Source: Squalus acanthias (lineage: Eukaryota). Taken from it: 64,000 bases of DNA. Below are positions 4,605-58,410 of this stretch, piece after piece. The notes under the pieces were generated by a model that was not told the origin of the DNA, made no database searches, and saw nothing but the letters and a program-made list of their open reading frames with translations. Within the stretch, counting starts at the first letter, position 1, and every line of letters begins with the position of its first letter. Where the stretch lies: the NCBI GenBank assembly GCA_030390025.1, contig CM059432.1, positions 39,062,001 to 39,126,000 of the forward strand, read 5' to 3'. The position numbers and the translations under genes are program-made.

Positions 4605-5356
4605 TTTGTCAGGGGGCTGGGAACCTAAGTGTGGGCCCAGAATGGAGAGAAACAAAGCTGGAAGTGCAAGTTAGAAAAGTAGTAAGCAAAACTAGTAGGG
4701 AGCAGAAACAAAGGCCAACAGTAAAGAGGGTCAAAGTGCAGAAAAATATTAAACAGGCAAAGTTGAAGGCACTTTATCTAAATGCACGTGGCATTCGCAC
4801 CAAGGTGGATGAATTAATGGCACTAATAGAAGTAAATGGGTATGATGCAATTGCCATTACAGAGACATGGTTGCAGGGTAACCAAAGCTGGGAACTGAAT
4901 GTTCCAGGGTACTCAACATTTAGGAAGGACAGACAAAAAGGAAAAGGAGGTAGCGTAGCGCTGTTAATAAGGGATGAGATCGGTATGGTAGAGATAAAAG
5001 ATCTTGGCTTGGCAGATCGTGATGTAGAACTGGAATCAGTTTGGGTGGAGCTAAGAAACAGCAAAGGGCGGAAAACATTGGTGGGAGTTGTGTATAGGCC
5101 ACCAAACAGTAGTGGTAATGTAGGGCACAGTATCAATCAAGAGATTAGAAGTGCATGTAACAAGGGCAATATGGTAATCATGGGGGACTTTAATCTACAT
5201 ATTGACTGGGCAAATCAAATTACCACTAATGGTGTGGAGGACAAATTCTTGGAATGCATGCGAGATGGTTTCCTGGATCAGTATGTGGAGGAACCAACCA
5301 GGGAATAGGCTATTCTGGATCTGGTACTGTGTAATGAGAAAGGGCTAATCAATAAT

Positions 5357-6295: not shown

Positions 6296-8413
6296 AACAT
6301 AGAACAGTACAGCACAGTACAGGCCCTTCGGCCCTCGATGTTGTGCCGAGCATTGTCCGAAACCAAGATCAAGCTGTCCCACTCCCTATCATTCTGGTGT
6401 GCTCCATGTGCTTATCCAATAACCGCTTGAAAGTTCCTAAAGTGTCCGACTCCACTATCACAGCAGGCAGTCCATTCCACACCCCAACCACTCTCTGAGT
6501 AAAGAATCTACCTCGGACATCCCTTCTATATCTCCCCCCATGCACCTTATAGTTATGCCCCCTTGTAACAGCTACATCCACCCGAGGAAATAGTCTCTGA
6601 ACATCCACTCTATCTATCCCCTTCATCATCTTATAAACCTCTATTAAGTCGCCTCTCATCCTCCTCCGCTCTAAAGAGAAAAGCCCTAGCTCCCTCAATC
6701 TTTCCTCATAAGACCTCCCCCACAAACCAGGCAGCATCCTGGTAAATCTCCTTTGCACTCTTTCCAATGCTTCCACGTCCTTCCTATAGTGAGGTGACCA
6801 GAACTGCACACAATATTCCAAATGTGGTCTCACCAAGGTCCTGTACAGTTGCAGCATAACCTCACGGTTCTTAAACTCAAACCCCTTGTTAATAAACGCT
6901 AACACACTATAGGCCTTCTTTACTGCTCTATCCACTTGAGTGGCAACCTTCAGAGATCTGTGGATATGAACCCCCAGATCCCTCTGTTCCTCCACGTTCC
7001 TCAGAACCCTGCCGTTGACCCTGTAATCCTTATTCAAATTTGCCCTACCAAAATGAATCACCTCGCACTTATCAGGGTTAAATTCCATCTGCCATTTTTC
7101 GGCCCAGCTCTGCATCCTATCAATGTCTCTTTGCAGCCTACAACAGCCCTCCACCTCATCCACTACTCCACCAATCTTGGTGTCATCAGCAAATTTACTG
7201 ATCCACCCTTCAGTCCCCTCCTCCAAGTCATTGATAAAAATCACAAACAGCAGAGGACCCAGCACCGACCCCTGTGGCACACCGCTGGTAACTGGTCTCC
7301 AGTCCGAAAATTTTCCATCCACCACCACCCCTCTGCCTTCTATGAGATAGCCAGTTACTTATCCAATCGGCCAAATTTCCCTCTATCCCACAACTCCTTA
7401 CTTTCTTCATGAGCCGACCATGGGGAACCTTATCAAACGCCTTACTAAAATCCATGTATACGACATCAACTGCTCTACCTTCATCAACACACTTAGTTAC
7501 CTCCTCAAAGAATTCAATCAAATTTGTTAGGCAAGACTTACCCTTCATGAATCCGTGTTGACTATCCCAGATTAAGTTGCATCTTTCCAAATGGTCATAA
7601 ATCCTATCCCTCAGGACCTTTTCCATTATCTTAGCAACCACCGAAGTAAGACTAACCAGCCTATAATTACCAGGGTCATTCCTATTTCCTTTCTTGAAGA
7701 GAGGAACAACATTCGCCACTCTCCAGTCCTCTGGCACCATCCCCGTGGACAGTGAGGACCCAAAGATCAAAGCCAAAGGCTCTGCAATCTCCTCCCTTGC
7801 CTCCCAAAGAATCCTAGGATATATCCCATCTGGCCCAGGGGACTTATCGACCCTCAGGTTCTTCAAAATTGCTAAAACATCTTCCCTCAGAACATCTACC
7901 TCCTCCAGCCTATCCACCTTTATCACACTCTCATCCTCAAAAACATGGCCCCTCTCCTCGGTGAACACTGACGAAAAGTATTCATTCATCACCTCTCCTA
8001 TCTCTTCTGACTCCATGCACAAGTTCCCACTACTGTCCTTGACCGGCCGTACCCTCACCCTGGTCATTCTTTTATTTCTCACATAAGAGTAAAAAGCCTT
8101 GGGGTTTTCCTTGATCCGACCCGCCAAGAACTTCTCATGCCCCCTCCTAGCTCTCCTAAGCTCTTTTTTTTAGCTCATTCCTTGCTACCTTGTACCCCTC
8201 AATCGACCCAACTGAACCTTGTTTTCTCATCCTTACATACGCTTCCTTTTTCCTCTTGACTAGACATTCAACCTCTTTTGTGAACCATGGTTCTCTCACT
8301 CGGCCATTTCCTCCCTGCCTGACAGGGACATACCTATCAAGGACATGCAGTAATTGCTCCATGAAAAAGCTCCACTTTTCGTTTGTGCCTTTCCCTGATA
8401 GTTTCTGTTCCCA
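6296..8413 (-). mobile_element. 5'-truncated CR1 LINE (RT region) nested antisense in the other CR1
   Basis: RT ORFs 7228-8127 and 6369-7328 joined by a frameshift. 7-bp TSD TCTATAG at 6289-6295 and 8414-8420. Confidence 0.95.
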
Positions 8414-11243
8414 TCTATAGGTATGTGGAAAGGAAAAGACTGGCGAAGGTAAAAATAGGTCCTTTACAGTCAGAGATGGGAGAATTTATAATGGGGAATG
8501 AGGAAATGGAAGAGAAATTAAATAAATACCTTGTTTCTGTCTTCACGGAGGAAGACACAAAAAACCTCCCAGAAATACGAGAAAACCAAGGGTGTGACGA
8601 GAAATTATTATTAGTAAAAAAACAGTACTAGAAAATTTAATGGGGCTAAAAGTCAATAAATCCCAAGGACCGGATGACCTACATCCTCGGGTTTTGAAAG
8701 AGATGGCCATTGCAATAGCGGACGCATTGGTTGTCATCTTCCAAAATTCTATAGATTCTGGAACGGTTCTTGCAGATTGGAGGATAGCAAATGTAACCCT
8801 GCTATTTAAGAAAGGAGGGAGAGAGAAAACGGGGAACTACAGACCTGTTAGCCTCATATCAGTAGTTGGGAAAATGCTGGAATCTATTATAAAGGATGCA
8901 ATAACTGGGCACTTAGAAACTAATAGTAAGATTGGGCAGAGTCAACATGGATTTATGAAAGGGAAATCCTGTTTGACAAACCTATTGGAGTTCTTTGAGG
9001 ATGTAACTAGTGGAGTAGACAAAGGGGAACCGGTAGATGTGTATCTGGATTTTCAGAAGGCCTTCGATAAGGTCCCACACAAGAGGTTGGTGAACAAAAT
9101 TAGGGCACATGGAATTGGGGGTAATATACTAGCATGGATTGAGAATTGGTTAACAGACAGAAAACAAAGAGTAGGGATAAATGAGTCTTTTTCAGGATGG
9201 CAGGCTGTGACTAGTGGGGTACCGCAAGGATCGGTGCATGGGTCCCAGCTATTCACAATCTATATCAATGATTTGGATGAGGGAACTAAATGTAACATTT
9301 TCAAATTTGCTGATGATACAAAGCTAGGTGGCAGTGTCAGTTGCGAAGAGAATGTGAAGAGGCTTCAAGGGGATCTCGACAGGCTCAGTGAGTGGGCGAG
9401 AACATGGAAGATGGAATATAATGTGGATAAATGTGAAGTTATCCACTTTGGTAGAAAAAGCAGAAAGGCAGAGTATTTCCTAAATGGTGAAAGATTGGGG
9501 AATGCAGATGCTCAAAGGGACCTGGGTGTCCTTGTACATGAGTCACTGAAAGTGAATGTGCAGGTGCAGCAAGCCATTAGGAAGGCAAATGGTATGCTGG
9601 CCTTCATTACAAGAGGATTTGAGTACAGGAGTAAAGAAGTCTTACTCCAATTATATAGGGCCTTGGTGAGACCACACCTGGAGTACTGTGTACAATTTTG
9701 GTCTCCTTACCTAAGGAAGGATATACTTGCCAACGAAGGTTCACGAGACTGATTCCTGGGATGGCGGGACTGTCGTATGAGAAGAGATTGAGTAAACTAG
9801 GCCTGTATTCTCTTGAATTCAGAAGAATGAGGGGGATCTCATTGAAGCATACAAAATTAATACAGGGCTTGATAGGATGGATACTGGGAGAATGTTTCCC
9901 TTGGCTGGGGAGTCTAGAACCAGGGACCACAGCCTCAAGATAAAGTGTAGGCCAGTCAGGACTGAGATGAGAAGAAATTTCTTCACACAGAGGGTGGTAA
10001 ATCTTTGGAATTCTCTACCCCAGAGGGCTGTGGCGGCTCAGTCATTGGGTATATTCAAAACAGAAGTCAATAAATTTCTGACTAGTAAGGGCATCAAGGG
10101 ATATGGCGATAGGGCCGGTGAATGGAGTTGAGGCAGAAGATCAGCCATGATCTCATTGAATGGCGGAGCAGGCTTGAAGGGACGAATGGCCTACTCCTGC
10201 TCCTAGTTCTTATGTTCTTATGTTCTTGCGATCTGTCAAGTTTCTCCTTGACAGATCCGCCGCATCCACTGTAAATTCACTTTTGCTGGCGCAGTGTTGG
10301 GCTATTTGTCTAACTACTGCCCACCGAGTACCCACCAAACCCTTACGCCTGGTAAAAGCAGGCATAAGGCCTGATTTTACCAGCGTAAGGGTTAAAATGA
10401 ATGTTAAAATACATTTTTTTTAAATGATTTAAACTTTCACTTACATTTAAAATTAGATTATGTCAATTTTGTCCCAGTTAAAAATGTTTAAATTTATTTT
10501 TCAAAAATTAAATTTTTATTTTAAATATTTAATTAAAGGATATTTTAATTAATTTTGAACCTGTGATCATTTATTTTTATTTAAGTAGTGTGAAATTTTA
10601 TTTATGAGGTGATTTATGTTATGCTGATAGGGATTCCGTACGTAAATGGAATCCCCATAAGTATAATAGGAATCCCCCTTTGTCATTGGTTGGCCTGACC
10701 CACGTGATCCCAGGGACGCTTGCGAACCGCACGTGCCCCTGGGATCCGTGGGCCTTTGCGCAGGCCTGCAGGCCCAGGACCGCAAGAGTCCGAAGCTCCG
10801 GGGACACCAGGTAAGTTCATAGTTTTCTTGCAGTTCGGAGGCGTACGCAGGCGGCAAGCCTCTGACTGCAATTTCCAGGCCATGGCATTAAGCAGTCCTT
10901 TGTGGCACATAAATCCCTAGTTGGGAACAGATGATGTGATCATTACTATTAGTTCGGTTGTACACTTTGACAGAGTCAAAAATTAGTCAAGCTAAACGTG
11001 TTAAATACATCATACCCAAACTTATTCATTAATACCGAAGAACTTTGATTAAAAAGAGTTAAACTCACTTGTTATACAATTAGTTTTAACAAGTAATATT
11101 CTGTTAGAATGGATTATTTGCAATGTACAGTGTTTTGGAACCAAGGACAGATCCTGAACTTTGGACAGAGCAGAAAAAAGTCCCCCAGCAATTCAGCTAC
11201 CTCTAAATAGTAATTCAGTGTAGTAAAATGTTCAAAACATATT

Positions 11244-23248: not shown

Positions 23249-26198
23249 TCAGTACTCTGTCCCTGCTTTCTCCCCATATCCCTTGATCCCTTTAGCCTTA
23301 AGAAATATATCTAACTCCTTCTTGAATATATTTAATGAATTGGTCTCAACTGCCTTCTGTGGTAGAGAATTCCACAGGCTCACCACTCTCTGGGTGAAGA
23401 AATGCCTCCTCATCTCAGTCCTAAATGGCTTACCCCTTATCCTTAGACTTTGACCCCTGGTTCTGGACTCCCCAGCCATCGGGAACATCCTTCCTGCATC
23501 TAGTCTGTCTAGTCCTGTTAGAATTTTATAAGTTTCAATGAGATCCCCTCTCATTCTTCTAAACTCTAGCAAATATAAGCCTAATCGATCCAATCTCTCT
23601 TCATTCCTGTCATCCCAGGTATCAGTCTGGTGAATCTTCGCTGCACTCCCTCCATGGCAAGAACATCCTTCCTCAGATAAGGTGACCAAAACTGCACACA
23701 ATACTCAAGGTGTGGTCTCACCAAGGCCCTGTACAACTGCAGCAAGACATCCTTGCTCCTGTACTCGAATCCTCTCGCTATGAAGGCCAACATACCATTT
23801 GCCTTCTTAACCACCTGCTGCACCTGCATGCTTACCTTCAGGGACTGGTGCACAAGGACACCCAGGTCTCGTTGCACTTCCCCTTTTCCCAATCTATTGT
23901 CGTTCAGATAATAATCTGTCTTCCTGTTTTTGCTACCAAAGTGGATAACCTCGCATTTATCCACATTATACTGCATCTGCCATGCATCTGCCCAATCACC
24001 CAACCTGTCCAAATCATACTGGAGTTTCTCTGCATCCTCCTCACAGCACACACGCCCACCCAACTTTGTGTCATCTGCAAACTTGGAGATATTACATCTA
24101 GTTCCCTCATCTAGATCATTAATATATATTGTGAATAGCTGGGGTCCTAGCACCAATCCCTGCGGTACCCCACTAGTCACTGCCTGCCACTCGGAAAAAG
24201 ACCCATTTATTCCAACTCTTTGCGTCCTGTCTGCCAACCAGTTTTCTATCCAAGTCAGTACCTTACCCCCAATCCCATGTGCTTTAAGTTTGCACGCTAA
24301 TCTCTTATGCGGGACCTTATCGAAAGCCTTCTGAAAGTCCAAATACACCACATCCACTGGTTCTCCCTTATCTATTCTACCAGTTACATCCTCAAAAAAT
24401 TCCAGTAGATTAGTCAAGCATGATTTAACTTTTGTAAATCCATGTTGACTTTGTCCGATCCTGTCACTGTTTTCCAAGTGCTCTGCTATTTCATCTTATA
24501 TAATGCACTCTAGCATTTTCCCCACTACCGATGTCCGGCTATAATTCCCAGTTTTCTCTCTCCCACCTTTTTTAAATAGTGGGGTTACATTAGCTACCCT
24601 CCAATCCATGGGAACTGTTCCAGATTCTATAGAATTTTGGAAGATGACCAGCAATGCATCTACTATTTCTAGGGCCACTTCCTTAAGTACCCTAGGATGT
24701 AGATTATCAGGCCCTGGGGATTTATCGGCCTTCAATCCCATCAATTTCCCTAACACCATTTCCCTACAAATACTGATTTCATTCAATTCCTCCCTCTCAT
24801 TAGACCCTATGTTCCCCGACATCTCTGGGAGGTCATTTGTGTCCTCCTTTGTGAAGACAGAACAAAAGTATGTATTTAATTGGTCTGCCATTTCTTTGTT
24901 CCCCATTATAAATTCCACTGATTCTGACTGCAAGGGACCTATGCTTGACTTCACATATCTATAGAAGCTTTTACAGTCAGTTTTTATGTTCCCTGAAAGC
25001 TTACTCTCATATTCTATTTTCCCCCTCTTAATTAATCCCTTTGTCCTCCTTTGCTGAATCCTAAACTGCTCCCAATCCTCAAGTTTGCTGCTTTTTCTGG
25101 CTAATTTATATGTCCTCTCCTTGGATCTTATGCTATCCCTACTTTCCCTTGTTAGCCACGGTTGAGTCACCTTTTTTGTTTTATTTGTATGCCAAACAGG
25201 GATGAACAAATTCTGTAGTTCATCCATGCGATCTTTAAATGTTTGCCATTGCCTATCCACCGTCAACCCTTTAAGTAACGTTCCCCAATCCATCCTAGCC
25301 AAATCGCACCTCATACCATCGTAGTTTCCTTTATTTAAATTCAGGACCCTAGTCTCTGAGTCAACTACTTCACTCTCCATCTTAATGAAGAATTCTACCA
25401 TATTATGATCGCTCCTTCCCAAGGGGCCTCGCACAACAAGATTGCTAATTAATCCTTTCTCATTGCATAATACCCAGTCTAAGATGGCCTGATCTCTAGT
25501 TGGTTCCTCGACATATTGGTCCAGGAAAGCATCCCGTATACACTCTAGGAATTCCTCCTCCACAGTATTGTTACTAATTTGGTTAGCCCAATCTATATGT
25601 AGATTAAAGTCACCCATGATAACTGCTGTGCCCTTATTGCACGCATCTCTAATTTCCCGTTTAATGCCATCCCCAACCTCAGCATTACTGTTTGGGGGTC
25701 TGTATACAACTCCCACTAACGTTTTCTGCCCCTTGGTATTTCTCAGCTCTACCCATACAGATTCCACATCATCAGAGCTAATATCCTTCCTTACTATTGT
25801 GTTAATCTCCTCTTTAACCAGCAATGCTACCCCACCTCCTTTTCCTTTTTGCCTGTCCTTCCTGAATATTGAATACCCCTGGATGTTGAATTCCCAGCCT
25901 TGGTCACCCTGGAGCCATGTCTCCGTAATCCCAATTATATCATATCCGTTTACATCTATTTGTGCAGCTAATTCATCCACCTTATTAAGAATGCTCCTCG
26001 CATTAAGGCACAAAGCCTTCAGGCTTGTTTTTTTAAACACTCTTAGTCCTTTTAGAATGATTATTTACTGTAGCCCTATTTGATTTACACCCTTGATTTC
26101 TCTGCCTTCCACTTTTGCTTTTCTCCTTCCGGTCTTTTGTTTCTATCCTTGATTCCCTTTCCTCTGTCTCCCTGCACAGGTTCCCAACCCCCTGCCAT
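23249..26198 (-). pseudogene. CR1 ORF2 (APE + RT) broken by frameshifts/small deletions
   Basis: ORFs 24496-26040, 23581-24477 and 23249-23701 carry consecutive APE, RT and C-terminal motifs. Confidence 0.93.
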
Positions 26199-28203: not shown

Positions 28204-30345
28204 TATGCCTCTATTTATGAAACCCAGGATCCCGTAAGCTTTTTTAACTGCTTTATCAATCTGCCCTGCCACCTTCAACGATTCGTGCACATATACCCCC
28301 AGGTCTCTCTGTTCCTGCACCCCCTTTAGGATTGTACCCTTTAGTTTAGTTTATATCACCTCTCCTCGTTCTTCCTACCAAAATGTATCACTTTGCACTT
28401 TTCTGCGTTAAATTTCATCTGCCGTGTGTCCGCCCATTCCACCAGCCTATCTATGTCCTCTTGAAGTTTATCACTTTCCTCCACACTGTTCACTATACTT
28501 CCAAGTTTTGTGTCATCTGCAAATTTTGAGATTCTGCCTTGTAGACCCAAGTCTAAGTCATTAATATATATCAAGAAAAGCAGTGGTCCTAGTACAGACC
28601 CCTGGGGAACACCGCTGTGTACCTTCCTCCAGTCCGATAAACAACCATTCACCACTACTCTCTGTTTCCTGTCACTTAGCCAATTTTGTGTCCATGCTAC
28701 CACTGTCCCTTTTATTCCATGGGGTTTCAACTTTGCTGGCAAGCCTATTATGTGGCACTTTATCAAACACCCTTTTGAAGTCCAAGTACACCACATCAAC
28801 CACATTGCCCTCATCAACTCTCTCAGTTACCTCATCAAAAAACTCGATCAAGTTAGTTAAGCACAATTTGCCTTTAACAAATCCGTGCTGGCTTTCCTTA
28901 ATTAATCCACACTTGTACAAGTGACTGTTAATTTTGTCCCGGATTATCGTTTCTAAAAGCTTCCCCACTACCGAGGTTAAACTGATTGGCCTGTAGTTGC
29001 TGGGTTTATCCTTACACCCCTTTTTGAACAAGGGTGTAACATTTGCAATTCTTCAGTCCTCTGGCACCACCCTCGCATTCAAGGAGGATTGGAAGATTAT
29101 GGCCAGTACGTCAGCAATTTCCACCTTTACTTACCTCAGCATTCTAGGATGCCTCTCATCCGGTCCTGGTGACTTATCTACTTTAAGTCCAGCCAGCTTT
29201 TCTAGTACTTCCTCTTTATCAATTTTTATCCCATCCAGTATCTCCACTACCTCCTCTCTCACTATGACTTTGGCAGCATCTTCTTCCTTGGTAAAGACAG
29301 ATGCAAAGTGCTCATTTAATACCTTAGCCATGCCCTCTGCCTCCATGCATAGGTCTCCATTTTGGTCCCTAATCGGCCCCACCCCTCCTCTTACTACCCG
29401 TTTACTATTTATATGTCTATAGAAGACTTTTGGACTCCCTTTAATGTTAGCTATCAATCTATTCTCATACTCTCTCTTTGCCCCTCTTATTTCCTTTTTC
29501 ACTTCCCCTCTGAACTTTCTATATTCAGCCTGGTTCTCACTTATATTCTCAACCTTACATCTATCATATGCCCCCTTTTTCTACTTCATCTTACCCTCTA
29601 TCTCTTTCTTCAGCCATGAAGCTTTGGCTTTGATTGCCTTACCTTTCCCCCTCGTGGGAATGTACCTCGACTGTACCTCTCCTCTTTAAAGGCAGCCCAT
29701 TGTTCGATTACAGTTTTGTCTGCCAATCTTTGATTCCAATTTACACGGACCAGATCCATTCTCAACCCACTGAAATTGGCCTTCCTCCAATTAGGTATTT
29801 TTACTCTAGATTGCTCCATGTCCTTTTCCATAGCTAATCTAAACCTTATGATACTGTGATCACTATTCCCTAAATGTTCCCCTACTGACACTTGCTCTTC
29901 TTGACCCACCTCATACCCCACAACCAGATCCAGCAGTGCTTTCTTCCTCGTTGGGCCGGAAACGTACTGATCAAAAAAGTTCTGCTGAACACACTTCAGA
30001 AATTCTTCCCCTTCTCTGCCCTTAACACTATTGCTATCCCAGTCTATATTAGGATAGTTGAAGTCCCCCATTATCACTACTCTATAGTTCTTGCACCTCT
30101 GCAAATTTGCTCCTCTGTATCCTTTCCACTAGTTGGTGACGTATAGAGTACACCTAGTAGTGTAATGGCACCTCTATTGTTTCTCAACTCTAACCAAATA
30201 GATTCTGTCCTTGACCCCTCCAGGACATCCTCCCTCTCCAGCACTGTAATATTCTCCTTAATCAATACTGCCACCCCACCTCCTTTCTTTCCTTCCCTAT
30301 CTTTCCTGAACATCTTACATCCAGAAATATTTAGTACCCAATCCT
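28204..30345 (-). mobile_element. CR1 ORF2 fragment (APE + RT), decayed
   Basis: KKGGGVAVL, GDFNYP, SDHS, QHGF, GVPQGS and KFADD motifs in successive ORFs. Confidence 0.92.
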
Positions 30346-33585: not shown

Positions 33586-36467
33586 GTCCCCATAAGTCTG
33601 AATTGCAACATGCCTACAACGAGGTGGAGGCAGCTTTGATGCTGCAGCTAACTCTTTCTGTCACTGGTTACGTCAGTCCTATGGTGCATGTTACCAGCAG
33701 CAGTCCTTACAACAGATGTCACAACTCTACATCTGGTTTTCTGCAGACCAGGCCCTCTGAAGACAGTTTCCCACAGTTATTGCCAGGACAGTGTGACAAT
33801 GTCTGTAAATATGTAGCCATCTTGCTAGGTGTGGGGAATTGGGCCTCGCTGACTGATGATCATCCTAGCATGTCTTCCTTAATGCAATACCATGTAAGGC
33901 ATGACATCCTTGATCTGGGGATGCTTCTGAAGAACCATCCAACATAATGGTTTGTTATGTCTTTAAGAGTTGGAGCTTTGGCATGTAGTAATTGTTTGCC
34001 AAAGTGACGCATACCCACCACAATTTGCAGATGCGGGTGTATAGCTATCGGCTGGTGGGCACAGACCACCTCTCACAATACCAGTGATGGTGCTAGAAGG
34101 AAATAACAATTGGCACAAAGGCTCATGAGAACCTTAATATCAGCAGAGAAAAACGGAAAGAAAAATTCCTCCTGATTGTCCACTCCAGCCCACCGGCCAG
34201 CCTCCATATCATTCCCGTCAGCTTCGTGTGGGAGTCAACATCGGGAAATGCTAATGAGGCCTGAGAGTTAACATTTCCTAGGCCACACGCTCCGGGAGGG
34301 CTGGACGGATCGCTGCCCGGCTTTGGGCACTAGACACCCTTGACCCCCCGCCCTGAGTAAACATTGGCCACCACCGCCCCCCCCCCCGGAGTTACAGATT
34401 GACACCCTTTGTTCCATGCTGCTTCGCCCCGTGAACTGGCACACATGGGATGTTCACATGAAATAGTTAAGCTTTATTATATCAACAGGATATTGCCATA
34501 GATGACTTCACAATCCATCTCTATTCTTTCACCCTTCATTGATCTGTTGGCTTATCTTTGCACTTTCACTTGACTTCATCGAGGAACCTGGTCTTGATGG
34601 TGTTAACATCTGCAAACTGAAAAGAGCAGGGATGATTTTCCTTTGGAATTTATGCCTGTTTTCTGGCATATCTCCAGTGAACAGATGCGGAAAATCAGGT
34701 GGGGTACCACTTCATGATTTTATGCTAAAAGTAGTGGTGGGTATTGGATATATCCATCTAAATATAGGCGGGTGAATTCAAATGATGTTTTAATGACAAG
34801 CCAACATCATATTCCTGTCATTAATGGCATAGCAATGTTGGATACTCGGACTGGTGTCTAGACTGGTGCAGGGAGCTTTGAAATTTAAATTCCTGTCCCC
34901 CAAGGGATTGTAATCAATCCCCGGATGATTGATTATACTCTTTCTGCTCAGTAATTTTGCAACGTAACAACCAATTCTTCAGCTGCCCCAAAGGCAGGCC
35001 ACACTCGGCTGCTGCAAGTGCCTGAGTCCTAAGGCAATCACTTCTGTCTCTCCCTCAAGGCAAGCTTCCTGATGCAGGCAGCAAATGTATTGGGAGTATG
35101 CCGAAATTATGTAATTGAGGCTGACGCTGGGAAATTGGCCAGAAAATGGTATAACCATGGGGTGGGTAAAAATCCATCCCCCTCCCGGGAGGGAGTTCTG
35201 CCCGGCAAAGTTGCAGTGAAATTTCTGTTGAGGAAAATCTTACCCACTCTCTTCTCCATAACCACATATATTTTGATTGCTATGATTAGTTAACTCCATT
35301 ATCACTGTATCATCTGACTACCAGGATTTTTTATTATTCGTTGCGGGATGTGGGCGTTGCTGGCAAGGACAGCATTTATTGCCCATCCCTAATTGCCCTT
35401 GAGAAGGTGGTGGTGAGCCGCCTTCTTGAACCGCTGCAGTCCTTGTGGTGAAAGTGCTCCCACAGTGCTGTTAGGGAGGGAGTTCCAAGATTTTGACCCA
35501 GCGATGATGAAGGAATGGCAATATATTTCCAACTCAGGATGGTGTGTAACTTGATGGGGAAGTTGCAGGTGGTGGTGTTCCCATGCGCCTGCTGCCCTTG
35601 TCCTTCTAGGTGGAAGAGGTCGCGGATTTGGGAGGTGTTGTCAAAGAAGCCTTGGTGAGTTGCTGCAGTGCATCTTGTAGATGGTACACACTGCAGCCAC
35701 GGTACGCCGGTGGTGGAGGGAGTGAATGTTTAAGGTGATGGATGGGGTGCCAATCAAGCGGGCTGCTTTGTCCTGGATGGTGTTGAGCTTCTTGAGTGTT
35801 GTTGGAGCTGCACTCATCCAGGCAAGTGGAGAGTATTCCTGACTTGTGTCTTGTAGATGGTGGAAAGACTTTAGGGAGTCAGGAGGTGAGACACTCGCCA
35901 TGAAGAATACCCAGCTTCTGACCTGCTCTTGTGGCCACAGTATTTATGTAGCTGGTCCAGTTAAATTTCTGGTCAATGGTGACCCCCAGGATGTTGATGT
36001 GGGGGATTTGGCGATGGTAATGTCGTTGAATGTCAAGGGGCGGTGGTTAGACTCTCGCTTGTTGGAGATAGTCATTGCTTCCATGAATGTTACTTGTCAC
36101 TTATCAGCCCAAGCCTGAATGTCGTCCAGGTCTTGCTGCATAAGGGCCTGGACAGCTTCATTTTCTGAGGAGTTGCGAATGGAACTGAACACTGTGCAAT
36201 CATCAGCGAACATTCCCACTTCTAACCTTATGATGGAGGGAAGGTAATTGATGAAGCAGTTGAAGATGTTTGGGCCTAGGACACTGCCCTGAGGAACTCC
36301 TGCAGTGATGTCCTGGAGCTGAGATGATTGGCCTCCAACAACCACAACCATCTTCCTTTGTGCTAGGTATGACTCCAGCCAGTGGAGAGTTTTCCCCCTG
36401 ATTCCCATTGACTTCAATTTTACTATGGCTCCTTGATGCCACACTCGGTCAAATGCTGCCTTGATGT

Positions 36468-37046
36468 ATAAAATACTAGTTAGGCCTCAGCTAGAGTACT
36501 GCGTGCAGTTCTGGTCACCACATTACAGGAAAGATGTGATTGCACTAGAGAGGGTACAAAGGAGATTTACAAGGATGTTGCCGGGAGTAGAGAATCTTAG
36601 CTCTGAGGAAAGACTGGATAGGCTGGGTCTGTTTTCCTTGGAACAGAGGAGGCTGAGGGGCGATCTTATTGAGGTGTATAAAATTATGAGGGGCATAGAT
36701 AAAGTGGATAGAAAGGACCTATTTCCCTTAGCAGAGGGGTCAAAAACCAGGGGGCACAGATTTAAAATAATTGGTGGAAGGTTTAGAGGGGATTTGAGGG
36801 GAAATTTCTTCACCCAGAGGGTTGTGGGGGTCTGGAACTCACTGCCTGAAAGGGTGGTAGAGGCAGGAACCCTAACCGCATTTAAAAAGCACTTGGATGT
36901 GCACTTGGGATGCTTTAACCTGCAGGGCTACGGACCAAGAGCTGGGAAGTGGGATTAGGCTGGATAGCTCTTTGTTGGCTGGCGCGGACACGATGGGCCA
37001 AAATGGCCTCCTTCCGTGCTGTAACTTTCTATGATTCAATGATTCT
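36468..37046 (+). mobile_element. 5'-truncated CR1 nested in the tRNA-headed LINE
   Basis: LEYCVQFWSPHYRKD...RRLRGDLIEVYK, (ATTCTATG)-type tail, ATGT flanks. The host RT rejoins as GCCTTGATGTCAAGGGC (ALDIKAA). Confidence 0.92.
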
Positions 37047-38804
37047 ATGTCAAGGGCAGTTGCTCTCACCTGGAATTTAGTTCTTTTGTCCATGTTTGGA
37101 CGAAAGCTATAATGAGTTCTGGAGCCAAGTGGTCCTGGCGGAACCCAAACTGAGCATCGGTGAACAGGTTATTAATGAGAAAGTGCCACTTGATAGCATT
37201 GTCGACAACACCTTCCATCACTTTGCTGATGATTGAGAGTAGACTGGTGGGGCGGTAATTGGCTGGATTGGATTTGTCCTGCTTTTTGTGGGCACGACAT
37301 ACCTGGGCTATTTTCCACATTGTCGGGTAGATGCCAGTGTTGTAGCTGTACTGGAACAGCTTGGCTAGAGGCATGGCTAGTTCTGGAGCACAAGTCTTCA
37401 ACACGACAGCTGGGATGTTGTTGGGGCCCATAGCCTTTGCTATATCCAGTGCGCTCAGCCGTTCCTTGATATCATGTGGAGTGAATCGAATTGGATAAAG
37501 AATGGCTTCTGTGATGGTGGGGACCTCAGGGGGAGGCCGATATGGATCATCCACTCGGCACTTCTGGCTGAAGATGGTTGCAAACGCTTCAGCCTTGTCT
37601 TTTGCTCTCATGTGCTGGGCTCCACTATCATTGAGGATGGGGATATTCATGGAGCGTCCACCTCCCGTTAGTTGTTTAATTGTCCACCACCATGCACGAC
37701 TGGATGTGGCAGGACTGCAGAGCTTTGATCTGATCCGTTGATTGCTTAGCTCTGTCTATAGCATGCTGTTTCCGTTATTTAGCATGCATATAGTTCTGTG
37801 TTGCAACTTCCCCAGGTTGGCACCCCATTTTTAGGTATGCCTGGTGCTGCTCCTGGCATGCTCTTCTGCACTTCTCATTGTACCAGGGTTGGACCCCTGG
37901 CTTGATGGTAATGGTAGTGTGAAGGATATACTGGGCCATGAGCTTAAGGATTATGGTGGAATACAATTCTGCTGCTGCTGATGGCCCACAGTGCCGCATG
38001 GATTCCCAGTTTTGAGCTGATAGATCTGTTATGAATCTATCCCATTTAGCATGGTGGTAGTGACACACAACACGATGGAAGGTGTCCTCAGTGTGAAGAT
38101 GGGATTTCGTCTCCACAAGGACTGTGCGGTGGTCACTGCTACCAATGTTGTCATGGACAGATGCATCTGCACCAGGTAGATTGGTGAGGACGAGGTCAAG
38201 TAGGTTTTTCCCTCGTGTTGGTTCTCTCACCACCTGCTGCAGGCCCAGTCTGGCAGCTATGTCCTTCAGGACTCGGCCAGCTCGGTCAGTAGTGGTGCTA
38301 CTGAGCTACTCTTGGTGATGAACTTTGAAGCCCCCCACCTAGAGTACATTCTGTGCCCTTGCTACTCTCAGTGCTTCTTCCAAATGGAGGAGTACTGATT
38401 CATCAGCTGCGGGAGGGCGGTAGGTGGTAATCAGCAGGAGGTTTCCTTGCCCATGCTTGACCTGAAGCCATGAAACCTCATGGGGTCTGGAGTCAATGTT
38501 GAGGACTCCCAAGGTCACTCCCTCCCGACTGTATACCACAGGGACATACCCAGGGATGGTAATGGAGGAATCTGGGATATTGGCTGAAAGATATGATTCT
38601 GTGAGTATGACTATGTCAGGCTGTTGCATGACTGGTCTGTGGGACAGCTCTCCCAATTTTGGCACAAGTCCCCAGATGTTATTGAGAAGGACTTTGCAGG
38701 GTCGACTGGGCTGGGTGTGCCGTTGTCGTGTCCAACGCCAGTGCCTAGGTAGATGCCGGGTAGTCCGTCCGGTTTTATTCTTTCTCGTAACGGTTTGTTA
38801 CAAC

Positions 38805-39085
38805 TGAGTGGCTTGCTCGGCCATTTCAGAGGGCAGTTAAAAATCAACCACATTGCTGTGGGTCTGGAGTCACATATAGGCCAGACCAGGACGGCAGATT
38901 TCTTTCCCTAAAGGACATTAGTGAACCAGATGGGTTTTTACGACAATCCGATAGTTTCATGATACTAGCTTTTTATTCCAGATGTATTTAATTAACTGAA
39001 TTTAAATTCCCCAGCTGCCGTGGTGGGATTTGAACTCATGTCTCTGGATTATTAGTCCAGGCCTCTGGATTACCACTATGCTACC
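38805..39085 (-). promoter_or_regulatory. tRNA-like internal Pol III promoter plus MER131/Meta-domain-like body forming the LINE 5'UTR
   Basis: Box A TAGCATAGTGG (39073-39083), box B GAGTTCAAATCCC (39025-39037). Body GGATTGTCGTAAAAACCCATCTGGTTCACTAATGTCCTTTAGGGAA recalled as MER131-like. Confidence 0.7.
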
Positions 39086-40285
39086 AGGATGGTAGAAGGC
39101 AAACTAGATCGACCTCGGTCCTTTTTCGTCAAGCATTTCGTATATTCCTGTTTTGGATGAACAATAAATGCTGGTCTTGCCAGCGACGCCCACATCCCAT
39201 AAACGAATAAAAATATATCTAAGTTTGGAAAGGGATCCGCACTTGACACAAAAGTTGCCGAATTGCGCTCTCTGCAGCTGACTTAACATTGCTAGATGTT
39301 ACCTCTGCTACTTCAGAAATGTGAAACCAGCATTACCAGAGGCCAGTTGAGATTTCCAGTGTGAACACTAACATCAAAATGGTGAAAGCCTGCTATCAGT
39401 AGAAAGCATGGGATTTCACATGGAAGAATGTTAGCATTAATAAGCCAAAAAATAAGACTATTAATACCGCAAGAACAAAAAGCAAAACCATTTATACAGC
39501 TACACTATACAAAGGGAATGTAATAAACTGTACAAACTGTAATGTCTGTACAAGAAAATTGAAGTGATAATGGTCAAATTTGGGCACTCTTATCAGTTGT
39601 GTAATAAATGTGTCCAACTAAAGTGATTATCCTTAAATTTGAGCTGTCTATGATACCATACAAATCTCATAAACGCGTTACAGCCTTGTAATACATTCAA
39701 ACACACCTGTTATTCTCTATATAGCAGATTGTCATAAATTTGGCTCTGCCGTAGATACCTTCTCAGGTTCCATGGTGTCAGTCACTCCCTTAAGCAGTCT
39801 GAGCTTCTTACTTTTATGGGAGTTCACGCACAAGGCCCTGTATCTACTTGTACAATAGCATCATCTGGGGATGTAACTTGTGATTGGGGCTGGATACTCA
39901 TATTTTTCACGTGTATTTCTTCAGACTCTTTCAAGGCTGGCTGAGCAAACATTTGGTGTGACAAGATTTGATATGAATTGTTAAGCAGCTTTATTTTCTA
40001 TTGGGTGAATATACAGAGCAGTAGTATCGATCAGATTTTCTTGTCTTTAGTGATTATCCCTCTGTGAAGTGCTTTGGGGTATTTTTCTATGTTAACGCTG
40101 CTATATAAATGCAAGTTGTTATTGTTGTCTTTGCGTAATAATATAAAAATAATGAACATGCTATGATACTGCATTCAGTTGGTCTGCTTGCTTACTTCAA
40201 ATTAATTTTCTAACTCCTCTCTCCTGTATTTTATCCTTCTCACAAACCTTTGTGCCTGACTGTCCCTAAATTTTTGCAGTTCTCT

Positions 40286-49781: not shown

Positions 49782-51379
49782 CTGCAAGAGAAAGGGAAAT
49801 GTGTCAGTGAGTGTGGTGCAATGTGTTTGGGTGATGTGCCTGTCATGATTGAATAGCTGACATTGTGTGCAAGCTGTGAGATGTGGGTATGAGGCTTGCA
49901 GCAGTGGTAAGTGTGTGAGGCTGAGGTGAAGCTATGAATGTGAGGTATGAGTTGTGTTTGGTAGCGATTGATGGTTGCTGGGCCCCCTGCTGAGCGTTCG
50001 GCTACTCAGTAGCGCGTTCAGCACTGGGCTGAACGCCGCAATCATGAAAATGAGCAGCCCGCGTGAAGTTTGTGTGCTGCCTGCAGTCCTCGAAACGGGA
50101 GTGGGTTGATCGTGCATTGTGATCCCTGCACCTGTTTTCTAGGCCAATGTCATTTTGCAACTCAAAATTCAATTCTTCAAACTGGCAACATTATGATAAC
50201 ATATGTTAGCATTGTAAATATTCAAAGAAAACATGCAAAATGAAACACAAGGAAATCAAACACCTCAGACCTTCGGTCCCAATTACAGAAAAGGAATTGT
50301 ACTATTAATGAGAGATACGGCTGGCAGTACAGCAGTTAATATAGTGGGACTAACTGAATAGCTCTTTCAAAGAACTGGCACATGCATGATGGGCCGAGTG
50401 TACTGTATGATTCTATGAGTAGATGATAAAGAAACTAAAATAACAATGGCGCAAAGTGCAAACTATTGGGAAACGCAATTTCCATGACTTCAGACTTTAT
50501 GCAGTGATTCATAGTGGGGGTCTTTCCTGTTAAGGAGACCAACTTTAATTTAACTTGCTGGCCAAAAATAAATGAATAGGAATCTATAGAAATGAATTTG
50601 TGGAATAGTCTCTGCTTCATATTATATCATTAGAGCTAACTATATTACTTATTGTAATTATTTGACTCTAGCAATTGTATTAATAAAAAACATCTATACA
50701 AAGCATGTAATAGCTATATAAACCTTTTCAAAATGCCATTCCTTTTCTCACTGTGACAGGAGCAATGATGTTAATTGATTAAACCAGCTGGCAAATGGAG
50801 CTATGTCCAAAATCCACAGGGTGTTTTAATAATTAAATAGTCTGGTTGGTCATACCATGTTGGAGTGGTCAATAACGCTTTGATATTTGATGCCAGGTAC
50901 ATAAGAACATAAGAACATAAGAATTAGGAGCAGGAGTAGGCCATACGGCCCCTCAGCCTGCTCCGCCATTCAATAGGATCACGGCTGATCTTCGATCTCA
51001 ATTACACTTCCTTGCCCGATCCCCATATCCCTTGATTCCACTAGAGTCCAAAAATCTATCTCTCAGCCTTGAATATACTCAACGATTCAGCATCCACAGC
51101 CCTTTGGGGTAGAGGATTCCAAAGATGCACAACCCTTTGAGTGAAGAAATTGCTCCTCATCTCAGTCTTAAATGGCTACCACTTATCCTGAGACTATGCC
51201 CCCTAGTTCTAGACTCTCCAGCCAGGGAAACAACCTCTCAGCATCTACCCTGTCAATCCCCCTCAGAATGTTATATGTTTCAATGAGATCACCTCTCATT
51301 CTTCTAAACTCCAGAGAGTATAGGCCGAATCTACTCAATCTCTCCTCATAGGAGAACCCTCTCAGCTCAGGAATCAATC

Positions 51380-51977
51380 AGAGGCTAGGTATTCTGCGGC
51401 GAGTGTCTCACCTCCTGACTCCCCAAAGCCTTTCCACCATCTACAAGGCATAAGTAAGGAGAGTGATAGAATACTCTCCACTTGCCTGGATGAGTGCAGC
51501 TCCAACAACACTCAAGAAGCTCGACACCATCCAGGACAAAGCAGCCCGCTTGACTGGCACCTCATCCACCACCTTAAACATTCACTCCCTCCACCACCGG
51601 CGTACCGTGGCCGCAGTGTGTACCATCTACAAGATGCACTGCAACAACTCGCCAAGGCTTCTTTGGCAGCACCTCCCAAACCCGCGACCTCTTCCACCTA
51701 GGACAAGGGCAGCAGGCGCGTGGGAACACCACCACCTCCAAGTTCCCCTGCAAGTCACACACCATCCTGACTTAGAAGTATATCGCCAATCCTTCATCGT
51801 CGCTGGGTCAAAATCCTGGAACTCCCTCCCTAACAGCACTGTGGGAGTACCTTCACCACACAGACTGCAGCGGTTCAAGAAGGCGGCTCACCACCACCTT
51901 CTCAAGGGCAATTAAGGATGGGCAATAAATGCTGGCCTTGCCAGCGACGCCCACATCCCATGAACAAATTTTAAAAA
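51380..51977 (+). mobile_element. 5'-truncated copy of the tRNA-headed LINE family
   Basis: EYSPLAWMSAAPTTLKKL, homologous to 35328-35900. A-tail and TSD AATC. Confidence 0.9.
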
Positions 51978-52195
51978 AATCTAGTGAAAGTTTGTTGCAC
52001 CGCCTCCAAGGCAAGTATATCATTCCTCAGATAAGGAGACCAAAACTGTGCACAGTACTCCAGGTGTGGTCTTACCAAAGCCCTGTACAATTATTGCAAG
52101 ACTTCTTTACTCTTGTACTCCAACCCCTTTTGCAATAAAGACCAACATGCCATTTGCCTTCCTAATTGCTTGCTGTATCTGCATGCTAACTCTCT

Positions 52196-55643: not shown

Positions 55644-58410
55644 GGGATAAAAATTCGGGGCTGAACGCCACCCGTTACTGGCAAAAAAGGGCGAAAGAGC
55701 AGCGGCTGCCGCTGGTGGGGGACACTGCAAATGGCCTTGCTGGTCGACCATGAGGAGCTGGTGGCTGGGAGTGTCAAACCAATCTTCTTCTGTTTCTTCT
55801 TCACTCCCCAGGCTGCATTTCTTGGGTGTGTGAAATGAGGAAGGCACAAGGGTGGAGTTGTGGTGAGGGGAGGGCGGGAAAGCATGAGGTGCATGCCAGA
55901 AGAAGGATAACGTACGAGGATACCCGCATCTTTTATCCTTTCAGCCCCAGAGGTGAGGCTGGGAATGGAAGGTGTGCTTCATGATTGTTACAGATTGTCG
56001 GTAGGTGAGTGATTGGGGTGGCGGGGGAGGTGAGGGTAGGAGCCGTGCATTGAGAAGTGTGTGAGGCTAGTTGATGCAGATGGTATGAGATGGCTTTTGA
56101 AGATGCATTCACTGACCTTGACCAGTGGTCTGAGGTCATGAAGCTTCTTTGGGCACTGGAGCCAGGTGGCAGTGACGGCCTCGGTGATGTGGTCCCACAT
56201 CGTTCTTTCTGGAGGGCCTCCTGGCCCCTGTGGGTAGAGGACCTCTCTTGCAGTGTTGACTCCCTGCACAAAGCTGGAGTGTTGCATGCGAGACCCTGGG
56301 TGCCCTTTCCCTGGCTTGCTGAGCCATTTCTCTTCTCTCTCTCTTAGACAGTCCCTCGGAACCGAGGATGACTTGCTTCCACGCTAAAAATTAGTTCTCA
56401 GGTGACTGATGAGTCCAATGTGGGACCTACAGTCTCTGTCACAGGTGGGGCAGACGGTGGTTGAAGGGGTGGGTGGGTGGGGTGCTTGGGTTGACATGTG
56501 CTCCTTCCGCTGTTTGCGCTTGGCTTCCGCGCCTTCCCGGATGCTTCTCCTCCACTTTGAGCGGTCTTGGGCCAGGGATTCCCAGGTGTCGGAGGGGATT
56601 TTGCACTTTTTCAAGGAGGCTTTGAGGGTGTCCTTGAATCGTTTCCTCTGCCCACCTGGGGCTCTCCTGCCGTGTCGGAGCTCCAAGTAGAGCGCTTGTT
56701 TTGGGAGTCTCGTATCGGGCATGCGGACGATGTGGCCCATCCATCGGAGCTGATCGAACGTGGTCAAAGCTTCGATGCTGGGGATGTTGACCTGAGCGAG
56801 AACACTGACGTTGGTGCATCTATCCTGCCAATGGATTTGTAGGATCTTGCGGAGGCAGCGTTGGTGGTACCTCTCCAGTGCTTTGAGGTGCCTGCTGTAC
56901 ATGGTCCATGTCTCTGAAGCGTACAGGATGGCGGGAATCACAACTGCTCTGTAGACCATGAGCTTGGTGCTGGGTTTGAGGTCCTGGTCTTCAAACACTC
57001 TCTTCCTCAGGCGACTGAAGGCTGCACTGGCACACTGAAGGTGGTGTTGGAGTTCATCATCGACGTCTGCCCTTGTTGACAGTAGGCTCCCCAGGTATGG
57101 AAAGTGGTCCACGTTGTCCAAGGCCTCGTCGTGGATTTTGATAATCGGGGGGGCAGTACTATGTGGCGGGGGCAGGTTGGTAGAGCACGTTTGTCTTACG
57201 GATGTTTAGCGTAAGGCCCATGCTCTTGTACGCTTTGGTGAAGGTGTTGACGATGGTTTGGAGTTCGACTTCCGAGTGTGCGCAGACGCAAGCGTCATCT
57301 GCATACTGTAATTCGATGACAGAGGATGGGATGACCTTGGATCTGGACTGGAGGCGACAGAGGTTGAACAGTTTCCTGTTTGTTCTGTAGATTAGCTCCA
57401 CTCCAGTGGGGAGCTTACTGAGGATGAGATGGAGCATTGCAGCAAGGAAGATCGAGAAGAGCGTTGGTGTGATGACACAGCTTTGCGTGAATTGGGTCTG
57501 TGGTGGATCCGTTGGTCAGGATCATGGCTTGCATGTCGTTGTGAAGCAGACAGAGGATGGTGACAAACTTTAGAGGGCAGCTGAATTTGAGGAGAACACT
57601 CCATAATCCCTCATGGTTGATAGTGTCGAAGGCCTTTGTGAGGTCAAAGAAGGCCATGTAATGTGGTTGGTGCTGTTTCCTGCATTTCTCTTGTATTTGA
57701 TGCGCGGTGAAGATCATGTCCATTGTGCCCCTTAGTGGGCAGAATCCGCATTGCGATTCTGGGAGGAGCTCTTCAGCCACTGGGTGAAGGTGATTGAGGA
57801 GGATTCTTGCGATGACTTTCCCTGTGGCAGACAGCAGGGAAACAGCTCTGTAATTACCGCAATTGGACTTGTCACCTTTCTTGAAGATGGTCATGATTAC
57901 GGCGTCTCTGAGATCCCCTGGCATGCTCTCCTCCTTCCAAATAAGAGAAATAAGAGAAATTTCTGAGCCATTTGTGTTAGTGCTGAAGCACTTTTCCCAT
58001 TTTTTGAGGTTCGGAAGGGAATTCAGCTTTAAGTGCTGAAGACTCCCATTTGGGACTTCTTTTTAATAGTACATTTTTTAGTGAAAGGCAGTAAGGGCTG
58101 AAAGCTGCATTTTTTCACTGCATTGTAATTTTTATTATCTGAATGCATTGCCCCTTTAATTAATAGCCCCTTTAATTGCCACAATGCTGTACAAACTCGA
58201 CAGCCTCGCTTCCACAGAAGCTGCAACGGCGACTGTAGATGGGAACTTCGGGTCGGAGGCCTCCATTAACGCCACCAGGACGGCGTTGCACGGTAAGTTA
58301 GCGCTGCGCTTCACATTGCCAACCCCCAGCGCAAGTTTTTGCCCGCTAGCGCTGCGGCCATTTTCAGCGTAAGATATGTTCTCTGCCCAGCGTACACAAA
58401 TTTCCCCCCC
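55644..58410. mobile_element. Harbinger deletion derivative (Myb remnants on -) hosting an RTE LINE
   Basis: TIRs GGGATAAAAATT / AAATTTCCCCCCC, TSD AAT/AAT. MAQQARERAPRVS and WLQCPKKLHDL remnants. Confidence 0.85.
56330..57962 (-). mobile_element. 5'-truncated RTE-clade LINE
   Basis: LPESQCGF, FDLTKAFD, LQYADD, YLGS, LRWMGHIVRM and C-terminal CxxC...H motifs. AG-rich tail. 11-bp TSD CTGAGCCATTT (56319-56329, 57963-57973). Confidence 0.93.

Follow-up and report, generated by a model that had tools for sequence, protein, structure and literature searches.

A Zenon retrotransposon of Squalus acanthias that begins with a tRNA-like head: a candidate RNA polymerase III-transcribed, protein-coding element

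Results

A LINE with a tRNA-like head lies on the minus strand

The window analyzed here is a 64,000-nucleotide stretch of the Squalus acanthias genome (GenBank assembly GCA_030390025.1, contig CM059432.1, positions 39,062,001 to 39,126,000), and it holds on its minus strand a long interspersed element (LINE) that lacks a first open reading frame (ORF1) and starts with a tRNA-like head of the kind found on short interspersed elements (SINEs). Judging by its sequence, it is a decayed full-length copy of the elasmobranch Zenon LINE, a CR1-group element about 3.27 kb long. A first-pass annotation, made from the letters alone, had described a minus-strand head with boxes A and B that runs into an APE-RT (endonuclease and reverse transcriptase) frame and ends in an A-rich tail, and all of these were found where it had placed them. 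The features are as follows, in window positions.

35318..39090, minus strand: whole element including the flanking 10-nt repeats, an ORF1-less LINE with a tRNA-like head
39081..39090, no strand: 5' copy of the 10-nt direct repeat, a likely target-site duplication; its final 5 nt also lie within the head (microhomology)
39016..39085, minus strand: tRNA-like head, 5'-shortened, with one of two anticodon-arm-like hairpins deleted
39083-39073, minus strand: box A
39037-39025, minus strand: box B
38801..39015, minus strand: non-coding body, common to the short SINE derivatives, with length variants that are not frame-constrained
38786..38788, minus strand: putative start codon ACG (non-AUG); an in-frame TAA at 38800-38798 lies four codons upstream
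38681..38788, minus strand: Arg-rich N-terminal leader in the APE frame, with 8 synonymous and 3 non-synonymous shared variants upstream of NIWG
35389..38788, minus strand: single APE-RT frame, broken in this copy
38680, 36210 and 35391-35389, minus strand: start of the APE motif NIWG, RT motif FADD and stop codon, respectively
36468..37046, plus strand: CR1 LINE 3' piece, a later insertion in the RT region with a 4-nt duplication
35328..35388, minus strand: 3' untranslated region of about 45 nt and A-rich tail, shared with the SINE derivatives, with a predicted stem-loop that holds AATAAA in its loop
35318..35327, no strand: 3' copy of the 10-nt direct repeat, an exact 10-mer match
39155..39219, plus strand: isolated family tail piece, head-to-head with the element
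51378..51980, plus strand: 5'-truncated family copy, the last ~600 nt

The copy has decayed through stops, frameshifts, and small deletions, and its head is without the first ~6 nt and without one of the two duplicated hairpins present in other copies. The 579-nt CR1 3' piece at 36468-37046 is opposite in orientation to the element, and its position inside the RT region indicates that a CR1 lineage was active later than the insertion of this copy. The first-pass annotation had also seen no obvious ATG, which stands insofar as the copies share no in-frame ATG before the APE domain but not for the window copy itself, which has one at 38629, near the APE start, that is private among the 18 aligned rows compared. 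The 10-mer CTACCAGGAT occurs exactly twice in the 64-kb window, at 35318 and 39081, and the 5 nt on the head side are family sequence, just as had been suspected. Direct repeats of at least 7 nt flank only 1 of 11 testable full-length copies; the independent target-site duplications that were to be counted are therefore not a family trait, and the 10-nt repeat of the window copy is atypical. The likeliest reading is a duplication of which the final 5 nt paired with head sequence.

The element belongs to the elasmobranch Zenon family

Zenon consensuses of 3.24-3.31 kb were published for elasmobranchs in 2026 (PMC13343379) and are described in the accessible part of that work as having a single APE-RT ORF, always without ORF1, and a poly-A tail. 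The supplement of that work counts ORF2 as intact in 3 of 612 cases for the stingray and in 1 of 1419 for the whale shark. The family studied here likewise has a single APE-RT ORF without ORF1 and a poly-A tail, and by eye the first ~400 nt of the published SquAca_Zenon-1 match the family copies. The absence of ORF1, initially taken for an anomaly, is thus the published norm for Zenon, as is the poly-A tail. The idea that the family might be uncatalogued was wrong for the sequence, which is catalogued as SquAca_Zenon-1 along with four other elasmobranch consensuses, but it holds for the tRNA head, which is not remarked in the accessible text: a count of 0 was obtained for both "tRNA" and "Pol III" in the main text and for "tRNA" in the supplement rows. 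A proposed resemblance of head and body to Meta-domain SINEs had to be dropped, because the body is by eye unlike the Meta-domain consensus given in the supplement of PMC7245038 and, by the same comparison by eye, no 66-bp Meta domain, the hallmark of MetaSINEs, follows the head. MER131, named in the same connection, is listed as an unclassified SINE with a poly-A tail in the part of PMC5753468 available.

The family is abundant. Exact 22-mer counts in the 3.7-Gb genome, which are lower bounds, gave at least 10,142 occurrences for the body, at least 6,090 for the APE start, and at least 48,306 for the ORF end, with 0 for the controls. Four contig sets from four organisms covered 30 of 30 bins, which shows presence of the family only, and a protein search for an ORF1-less Rex1 control returned 20 loci that all proved to be Zenon. 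In protein comparisons, gene models from several sharks matched through the family pieces they contain; among full-length relatives, the best were single-ORF elements at 33%. The annotated shark gene models that contain family ORF pieces (P0001, P0012, P0017, P0020, and P0032) include an aldo-keto reductase model, and such pieces are probably annotation artefacts or cases of exonisation.

The tRNA-like head is the native 5' end of the family

The head-to-APE junction was recovered in 39 other genomic matches with 86-90% identity (40 of 6,901 candidates being scored), and in 31 of these the family tail is present at most 5.9 kb from the junction, mostly at 3.1-3.45 kb. When copies were picked by their APE start, 25 of the 29 best-scoring ones (one pair being a duplicate) and 21 of the first 30 by position extended back into the tRNA region. 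Altogether, 46 of 59 APE-start copies reach the head, and most share the same GGGAAC start, while the remaining 13 end within the body or leader. The flanks of these 13 truncated copies had no common upstream sequence, as only four pair matches were seen and none was anchored at both junctions. The family natively starts with the tRNA-like head. The junction is not locus-specific, and its repetition across the genome led to rejection of a chance adjacency of a SINE and a LINE at this locus. A hidden ORF1-bearing form was likewise rejected, since the truncated-copy flanks gave no alternative 5' end among the 59 APE-start copies.

By eye, within the first 400 nt, the CarCar, RhiTyp, ScyCan, SquAca, and HypSab Zenon consensuses all have this head and retain boxes A and B, although the hairpin between the boxes differs among the five. 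The head was not seen in the first 400 nt of the hagfish or coelacanth Zenon consensuses. Sharks and rays split roughly 270-300 million years ago, and the same head in shark and ray consensuses places its origin before that split. It was probably first acquired by capture of an older SINE, so that the direction would be SINE to LINE.

The head has boxes A and B at its 5' end and a fixed start just upstream of box A, which is the arrangement of a type-2 RNA polymerase III (Pol III) promoter, while its Rfam match is weak. ARAGORN reported 0 tRNAs in the window. Its tRNA likeness is of the degenerate SINE kind. The family head (e.g., locus L047, positions 574-663) contains two tandem hairpins like anticodon arms, the first with the loop CTAGTAA and a Thr-like AGT at the anticodon position and the second with, by eye, compensating stem changes across species.

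Head-bearing lineages kept their coding frame under selection

Of 31 head-bearing copies, one was set aside for its large insert and the other thirty, which differ by 3-7% from the column majority, were read column by column. One frame is open for 972 codons over these copies, whereas the other two frames have 42 and 49 stops, and Pfam recognizes APE and RT in a natural 679-aa frame. Among non-CpG variants found in at least five copies, 31 are synonymous and 18 non-synonymous, corresponding to a ratio of non-synonymous to synonymous polymorphism (pN/pS) of 0.18. The ratio is 0.37 for variants in 3-4 copies and 0.89 for private variants (351 synonymous; 1004 non-synonymous or stop), and the same statistic in the two shifted frames is 1.45 and 3.12 (Fisher P 8e-8). 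The low pN/pS of the shared variants indicates that the head-bearing masters needed their protein. The head-bearing lineages kept the APE-RT frame under purifying selection. A coding frame maintained by selection in a transposing lineage is one mark of an autonomous LINE, and a full-length element of 3.27 kb with a 972-codon selected frame does not fit the short, non-coding format of a SINE.

The sense strand is nearly free of Pol III terminators

Pol III stops at runs of four or more T (T4), according to the passages available of PMC9820447. The sense strand, which was to be checked for TTTT, nearly lacks such runs: sense-strand counts are 0-2 per copy, against 11-24 for the antisense strand. 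Of 16 sites, 15 are private and one occurs in three copies, and no run lies in a majority column, so that the non-template strand within the unit is, apart from these sites, without T4, as would be expected of a Pol III unit. The density is 0.18 runs/kb in the family ORF and 0.22 in the head, compared with 3.16 in the main CR1 cluster at the same loci, which comprises 49 pieces and 36 kb. Most of the smaller LINE clusters there have 1.7-6.3. Only T runs are strongly depleted, and the depletion is sense-specific and includes the non-coding head. With amino acids fixed, 2 T4 runs were observed for 50.6 expected in the family frames, versus 110 for 150 in control LINE frames, of which there were 53. 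Another ten frames of the family, some reaching into flanks, had 7 for 28 expected. Phenylalanine is encoded as TTT in 53 of 244 cases in the family versus 275 of 481 in control frames, and its content is ~2% in the family versus 4.3% in controls and 2.5-5.9% in 16 homologues.

T4 density rises with divergence from the reference copy (0.14, 0.22, 0.49, and 1.04 per kb), as expected if copies decayed from a run-free master. Two older Zenon-like ORF pieces (L230:3518-4088 and ~660 nt in L177), 69-70% identical to the main family and by their sequence an older subfamily, also have no sense-strand T4 run. A distant locus at 29% in a metagenome scan has 11 T4 runs in 3.07 kb but is not shown to be Zenon. 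The A tail is preceded by 1-10 T, and the genome background shows a similar trend (61% versus 43% with at least 2 T, P 0.03); this variable run was not accepted as a scar of Pol III termination, given the like T-before-A runs in the background and the anticorrelation of T length with A length.

Frame selection points to a non-AUG start codon

No AUG precedes the endonuclease in the coding frame, and the first shared in-frame ATG lies ~285 codons in, beyond the APE domain. About 100 nt before NIWG, an ATG opens a 48-codon frame shifted by one, but it reads ATA in 13 of the 30 copies. These 13 form an older clade that was itself under selection, with diagnostic changes mostly synonymous in the APE frame. 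Where the two frames overlap, shared variants in 109 copies are 11 synonymous and 3 non-synonymous in the APE frame and 3 synonymous and 11 non-synonymous in the ATG frame, and upstream of NIWG the same copies give 8 and 3 in the APE frame. This bias indicates that the Arg-rich leader is coding in the APE frame. The 48-codon upstream ORF was therefore rejected as a miniature ORF1 or as the start, since its frame is not selected and its ATG is lost in one clade.

Length differences in the upstream linker are of 3, 6, or 9 nt, and the frame is kept back to GCT-ACG in 70 of 79 copies, while the body linker does not keep frame. By eye, the same frame is also kept in the published consensuses of four other species. 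At the start position, the codon is ACG in 46 copies, ACA in 18, and ATG in 10, a spread that has the look of CpG decay from ACG, and an in-frame TAA lies four codons upstream. The search for a start codon thus points to ACG, which at 38788-38786 is likely the start codon of the window copy. Alternatively, initiation of the internal ribosome entry site (IRES) type could possibly occur at a codon neighbouring the ACG; such a mechanism was speculated on for LINEs in the part of PMC3894237 available. Folding of the head and body (z -1.56) and of the 3' end (z -1.10) was not significant in either case and so gives an IRES no structural support, and no 2A-like NPGP motif was seen in the leader.

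Short SINEs probably derive from the LINE

The short head-plus-tail derivatives that had been anticipated are present. A pattern joining the end of the head to the tail had 225 exact genomic matches, with 0 for the control, and the corresponding SINEs of ~390 nt have in common with the LINE its head and body as well as the final ~75 nt. Of the 30 bodies that come first by position, 11 run into APE, 17 join the tail (an 18th does so by eye), and 1 does neither. The 17 tail joins lie at 15 different positions, and some SINEs keep the first leader codons or the last ORF codons. The SINE heads belong to the type seen in this genome; they are most similar to the older ATA clade and are more diverged (7.6% versus 5.5% and 3.6%). 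The simplest source for these SINEs would be repeated internal deletion of the LINE. Full-length copies in the L031-L069 alignment have about 4.8 internal deletions of 6-59 nt each, with gaps of at least 60 nt in 5 of 30, which suggests a jump-prone reverse transcriptase or deletion-prone repair. The initial proposal of a stable SINE-LINE fusion, or a LINE from which SINEs arise, is borne out by the genome-wide junction, the short SINEs, and the sense strand without TTTT.

Neighbouring sequences

The family 3' pieces noticed elsewhere in the window were confirmed and refined to 51378-51980 and 39155-39219, both on the plus strand. The latter, a 65-nt tail piece, sits 65 nt upstream of the element, head-to-head, and is possibly a separate, severely truncated insertion. 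Much of the window consists of other LINE fragments, CR1-like where translated (4766-5335, 6402-8341, 8637-9185, 24205-26019, 28747-30080, and 57607-57921).

Discussion

We consider it likely that the window element, a Zenon copy with a native SINE head and a selected frame, was transcribed by Pol III from end to end and translated from a non-AUG (ACG) start. For the family as a whole, the sequence features would fit an autonomous "protein-coding SINE" of sharks and rays, made by Pol III, with a terminator-avoiding ORF, a cap-independent non-AUG start, a body that serves as ribosome entry, and SINEs formed by deletion, and we give this wider proposal about an even chance. The Zenon of an elasmobranch ancestor would have acquired as its 5' end the head and body of a tRNA-derived SINE, probably through template switching, and boxes A and B would then drive Pol III, with TTTT purged by selection so that the polymerase could reach the 3' end. 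The uncapped RNA would draw ribosomes independently of a cap, with a start at or beside the ACG. The protein could bind the 3' stem-loop and A tail, and target-primed reverse transcription would yield copies that are mostly 5'-truncated and mostly without target-site duplications, while template jumps from tail to body would produce ready-made SINEs of ~390-460 nt.

Several observations pull the other way. The Rfam tRNA model gives the window head 19.5 bits (E 0.28) and an intact head 16.8 bits (E 0.91), where the cut-off is 29 bits. The copies come from few masters and are not independent, which makes the T-run result almost a single evolutionary observation. For one element, composition or third-position nulls put the probability of having no T4 at 0.013, but family-trained Markov nulls put it at 0.105-0.375 and the element's own codon usage at 0.12. 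The controls are LINE pieces other than Zenon; an L2-like control is itself partly depleted (TTTT observed/expected 0.32 over 1.7 kb; L034:593-1728 and L126:700-1284), and one 459-nt control piece also has zero T4. The AAT repeats of the linker slip by 3 without selection, and by eye the stingray consensus has AAA at the ACG position while three others have ACA, the latter of which may come from CpG decay. No unbroken natural copy was among the stretches fetched, and Pol III is held to be too weakly processive for autonomous elements in the passages available of PMC10886601 (Kojima 2024).

The strongest competitor, to which we assign a low but real probability, is that the SINE head acts as an ordinary RNA polymerase II (Pol II) promoter or 5' untranslated region, or that host read-through supplies a capped, scanned RNA, with the poverty in U runs stemming from RT behaviour, RNA stability, splice-acceptor avoidance, or a Zenon-wide codon habit. 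It could draw on the AATAAA ~45 nt before the tail, on the partly T-poor L2-like control, on the non-significant nulls that use the family's own codon usage, and on the statement in the accessible part of PMC9820447 that type 3 Pol III promoters can also drive long Pol II transcripts. It does not easily account for the persistence, by eye, of boxes A and B in five species despite the divergence between them, or for a depletion that is T-specific and sense-specific and extends to the non-coding head. Moreover, a scanning ribosome would first meet several out-of-frame ATGs in the body, and the SINE derivatives amplified with nothing but this head.

A two-transcript cycle, in which Pol III makes the full-length template (hence no TTTT) and the protein is translated from other, capped transcripts that arise by Pol II read-through of some copies, seems improbable to us. 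It would remove the need for cap-independent translation, and 5'-truncated copies are often fused in frame to their flanks, with family pieces present in shark gene models; yet selection on the frame and leader in head-bearing lineages implies that the protein acted mainly on the RNA of its own lineage. That same selection (pN/pS 0.18) speaks against a non-autonomous SINE-LINE chimera moved by a head-less or ORF1-bearing master, or a chance adjacency, as do the lack of an alternative 5' end among the 59 APE-start copies and the published full-length consensuses, all of which begin with the head in the portions available. Although all fetched copies are broken and only part of the genome's copies was scored in the searches, this last explanation is already largely refuted, and we regard it as very improbable.

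If Pol III transcription of a selected, ACG-initiated frame is correct, the element would represent a 3.3-kb mRNA made naturally by Pol III and would break the division between LINEs with Pol II and SINEs with Pol III in a long-lived and very abundant family. Translation of an uncapped RNA without AUG and the birth of SINEs could then be tested in one short construct. A single deletion of a head-bearing LINE would suffice for SINE birth, and current shark repeat annotation would mix the Zenon LINE with its SINEs.

Current reviews, including the accessible part of PMC10886601, assign LINEs to Pol II and SINEs, which cannot encode protein, to Pol III, and the latter source (Kojima 2024) adds that transcription of non-LTR (long terminal repeat) elements is by Pol II and that element length is constrained under Pol III. 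In the literature, no account was found of a shark LINE with a tRNA head or with Pol III transcription, although Repbase, Dfam, SINEBase, or subscription papers may hold one. The arrangement is not described in the passages available of PMC4824008, PMC5499810, PMC11481361, PMC10572872, and bioRxiv 443036, and a term search of bioRxiv 788562 gave no matches.

The elasmobranch Zenon elements of PMC13343379 (SquAca_Zenon-1/2/3 and the CarCar, RhiTyp, ScyCan, and HypSab Zenon-1) are, from the portion available, the same family as the window element. The family, its lack of ORF1, and its poly-A tail are already known; what is new here is that the SINE head is remarked, together with the frame selection, the T-run loss, the ACG start, and the SINE progeny, and of these the T-run loss, the start codon, and the derived SINEs were not found for the published elements in a literature search. 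A LINE that holds tRNA-like sequence exists in RTE-1_DAn and related elements (Repbase; PMC5786205), which belong to another clade and host and whose matches were treated as a nuisance and taken out; this possible precedent is known from one sentence without position or function. TRIMp3 elements (Cassandra, Helenus, and Ajax; PMC10886601) are retrotransposons with a Pol III promoter derived from small RNA, but they are LTR-type, short, and non-autonomous, and in the available passages the author argues that the autonomous partners must use Pol II. The tRNA-derived SINEs, including polyadenylated T+ SINEs (B2, Dip, and Ves) and MetaSINEs, have a box A/B head, a body, a LINE-type tail, and AATAAA near the 3' end, as here; they are under ~700 nt and non-coding, whereas the shark element is 3.3 kb and coding and has no fixed terminator before the tail. 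A parallel to its life cycle is lepidopteran Zenon, which in the accessible part of PMC6740152 likewise lacks ORF1 and spawns a derivative, Persaeus, by joining 5' and 3' ends through deletion. Neither homology to tRNA nor a Pol III promoter is present in Persaeus, whereas the shark derivatives count as formal tRNA SINEs, since the head is already part of the LINE.

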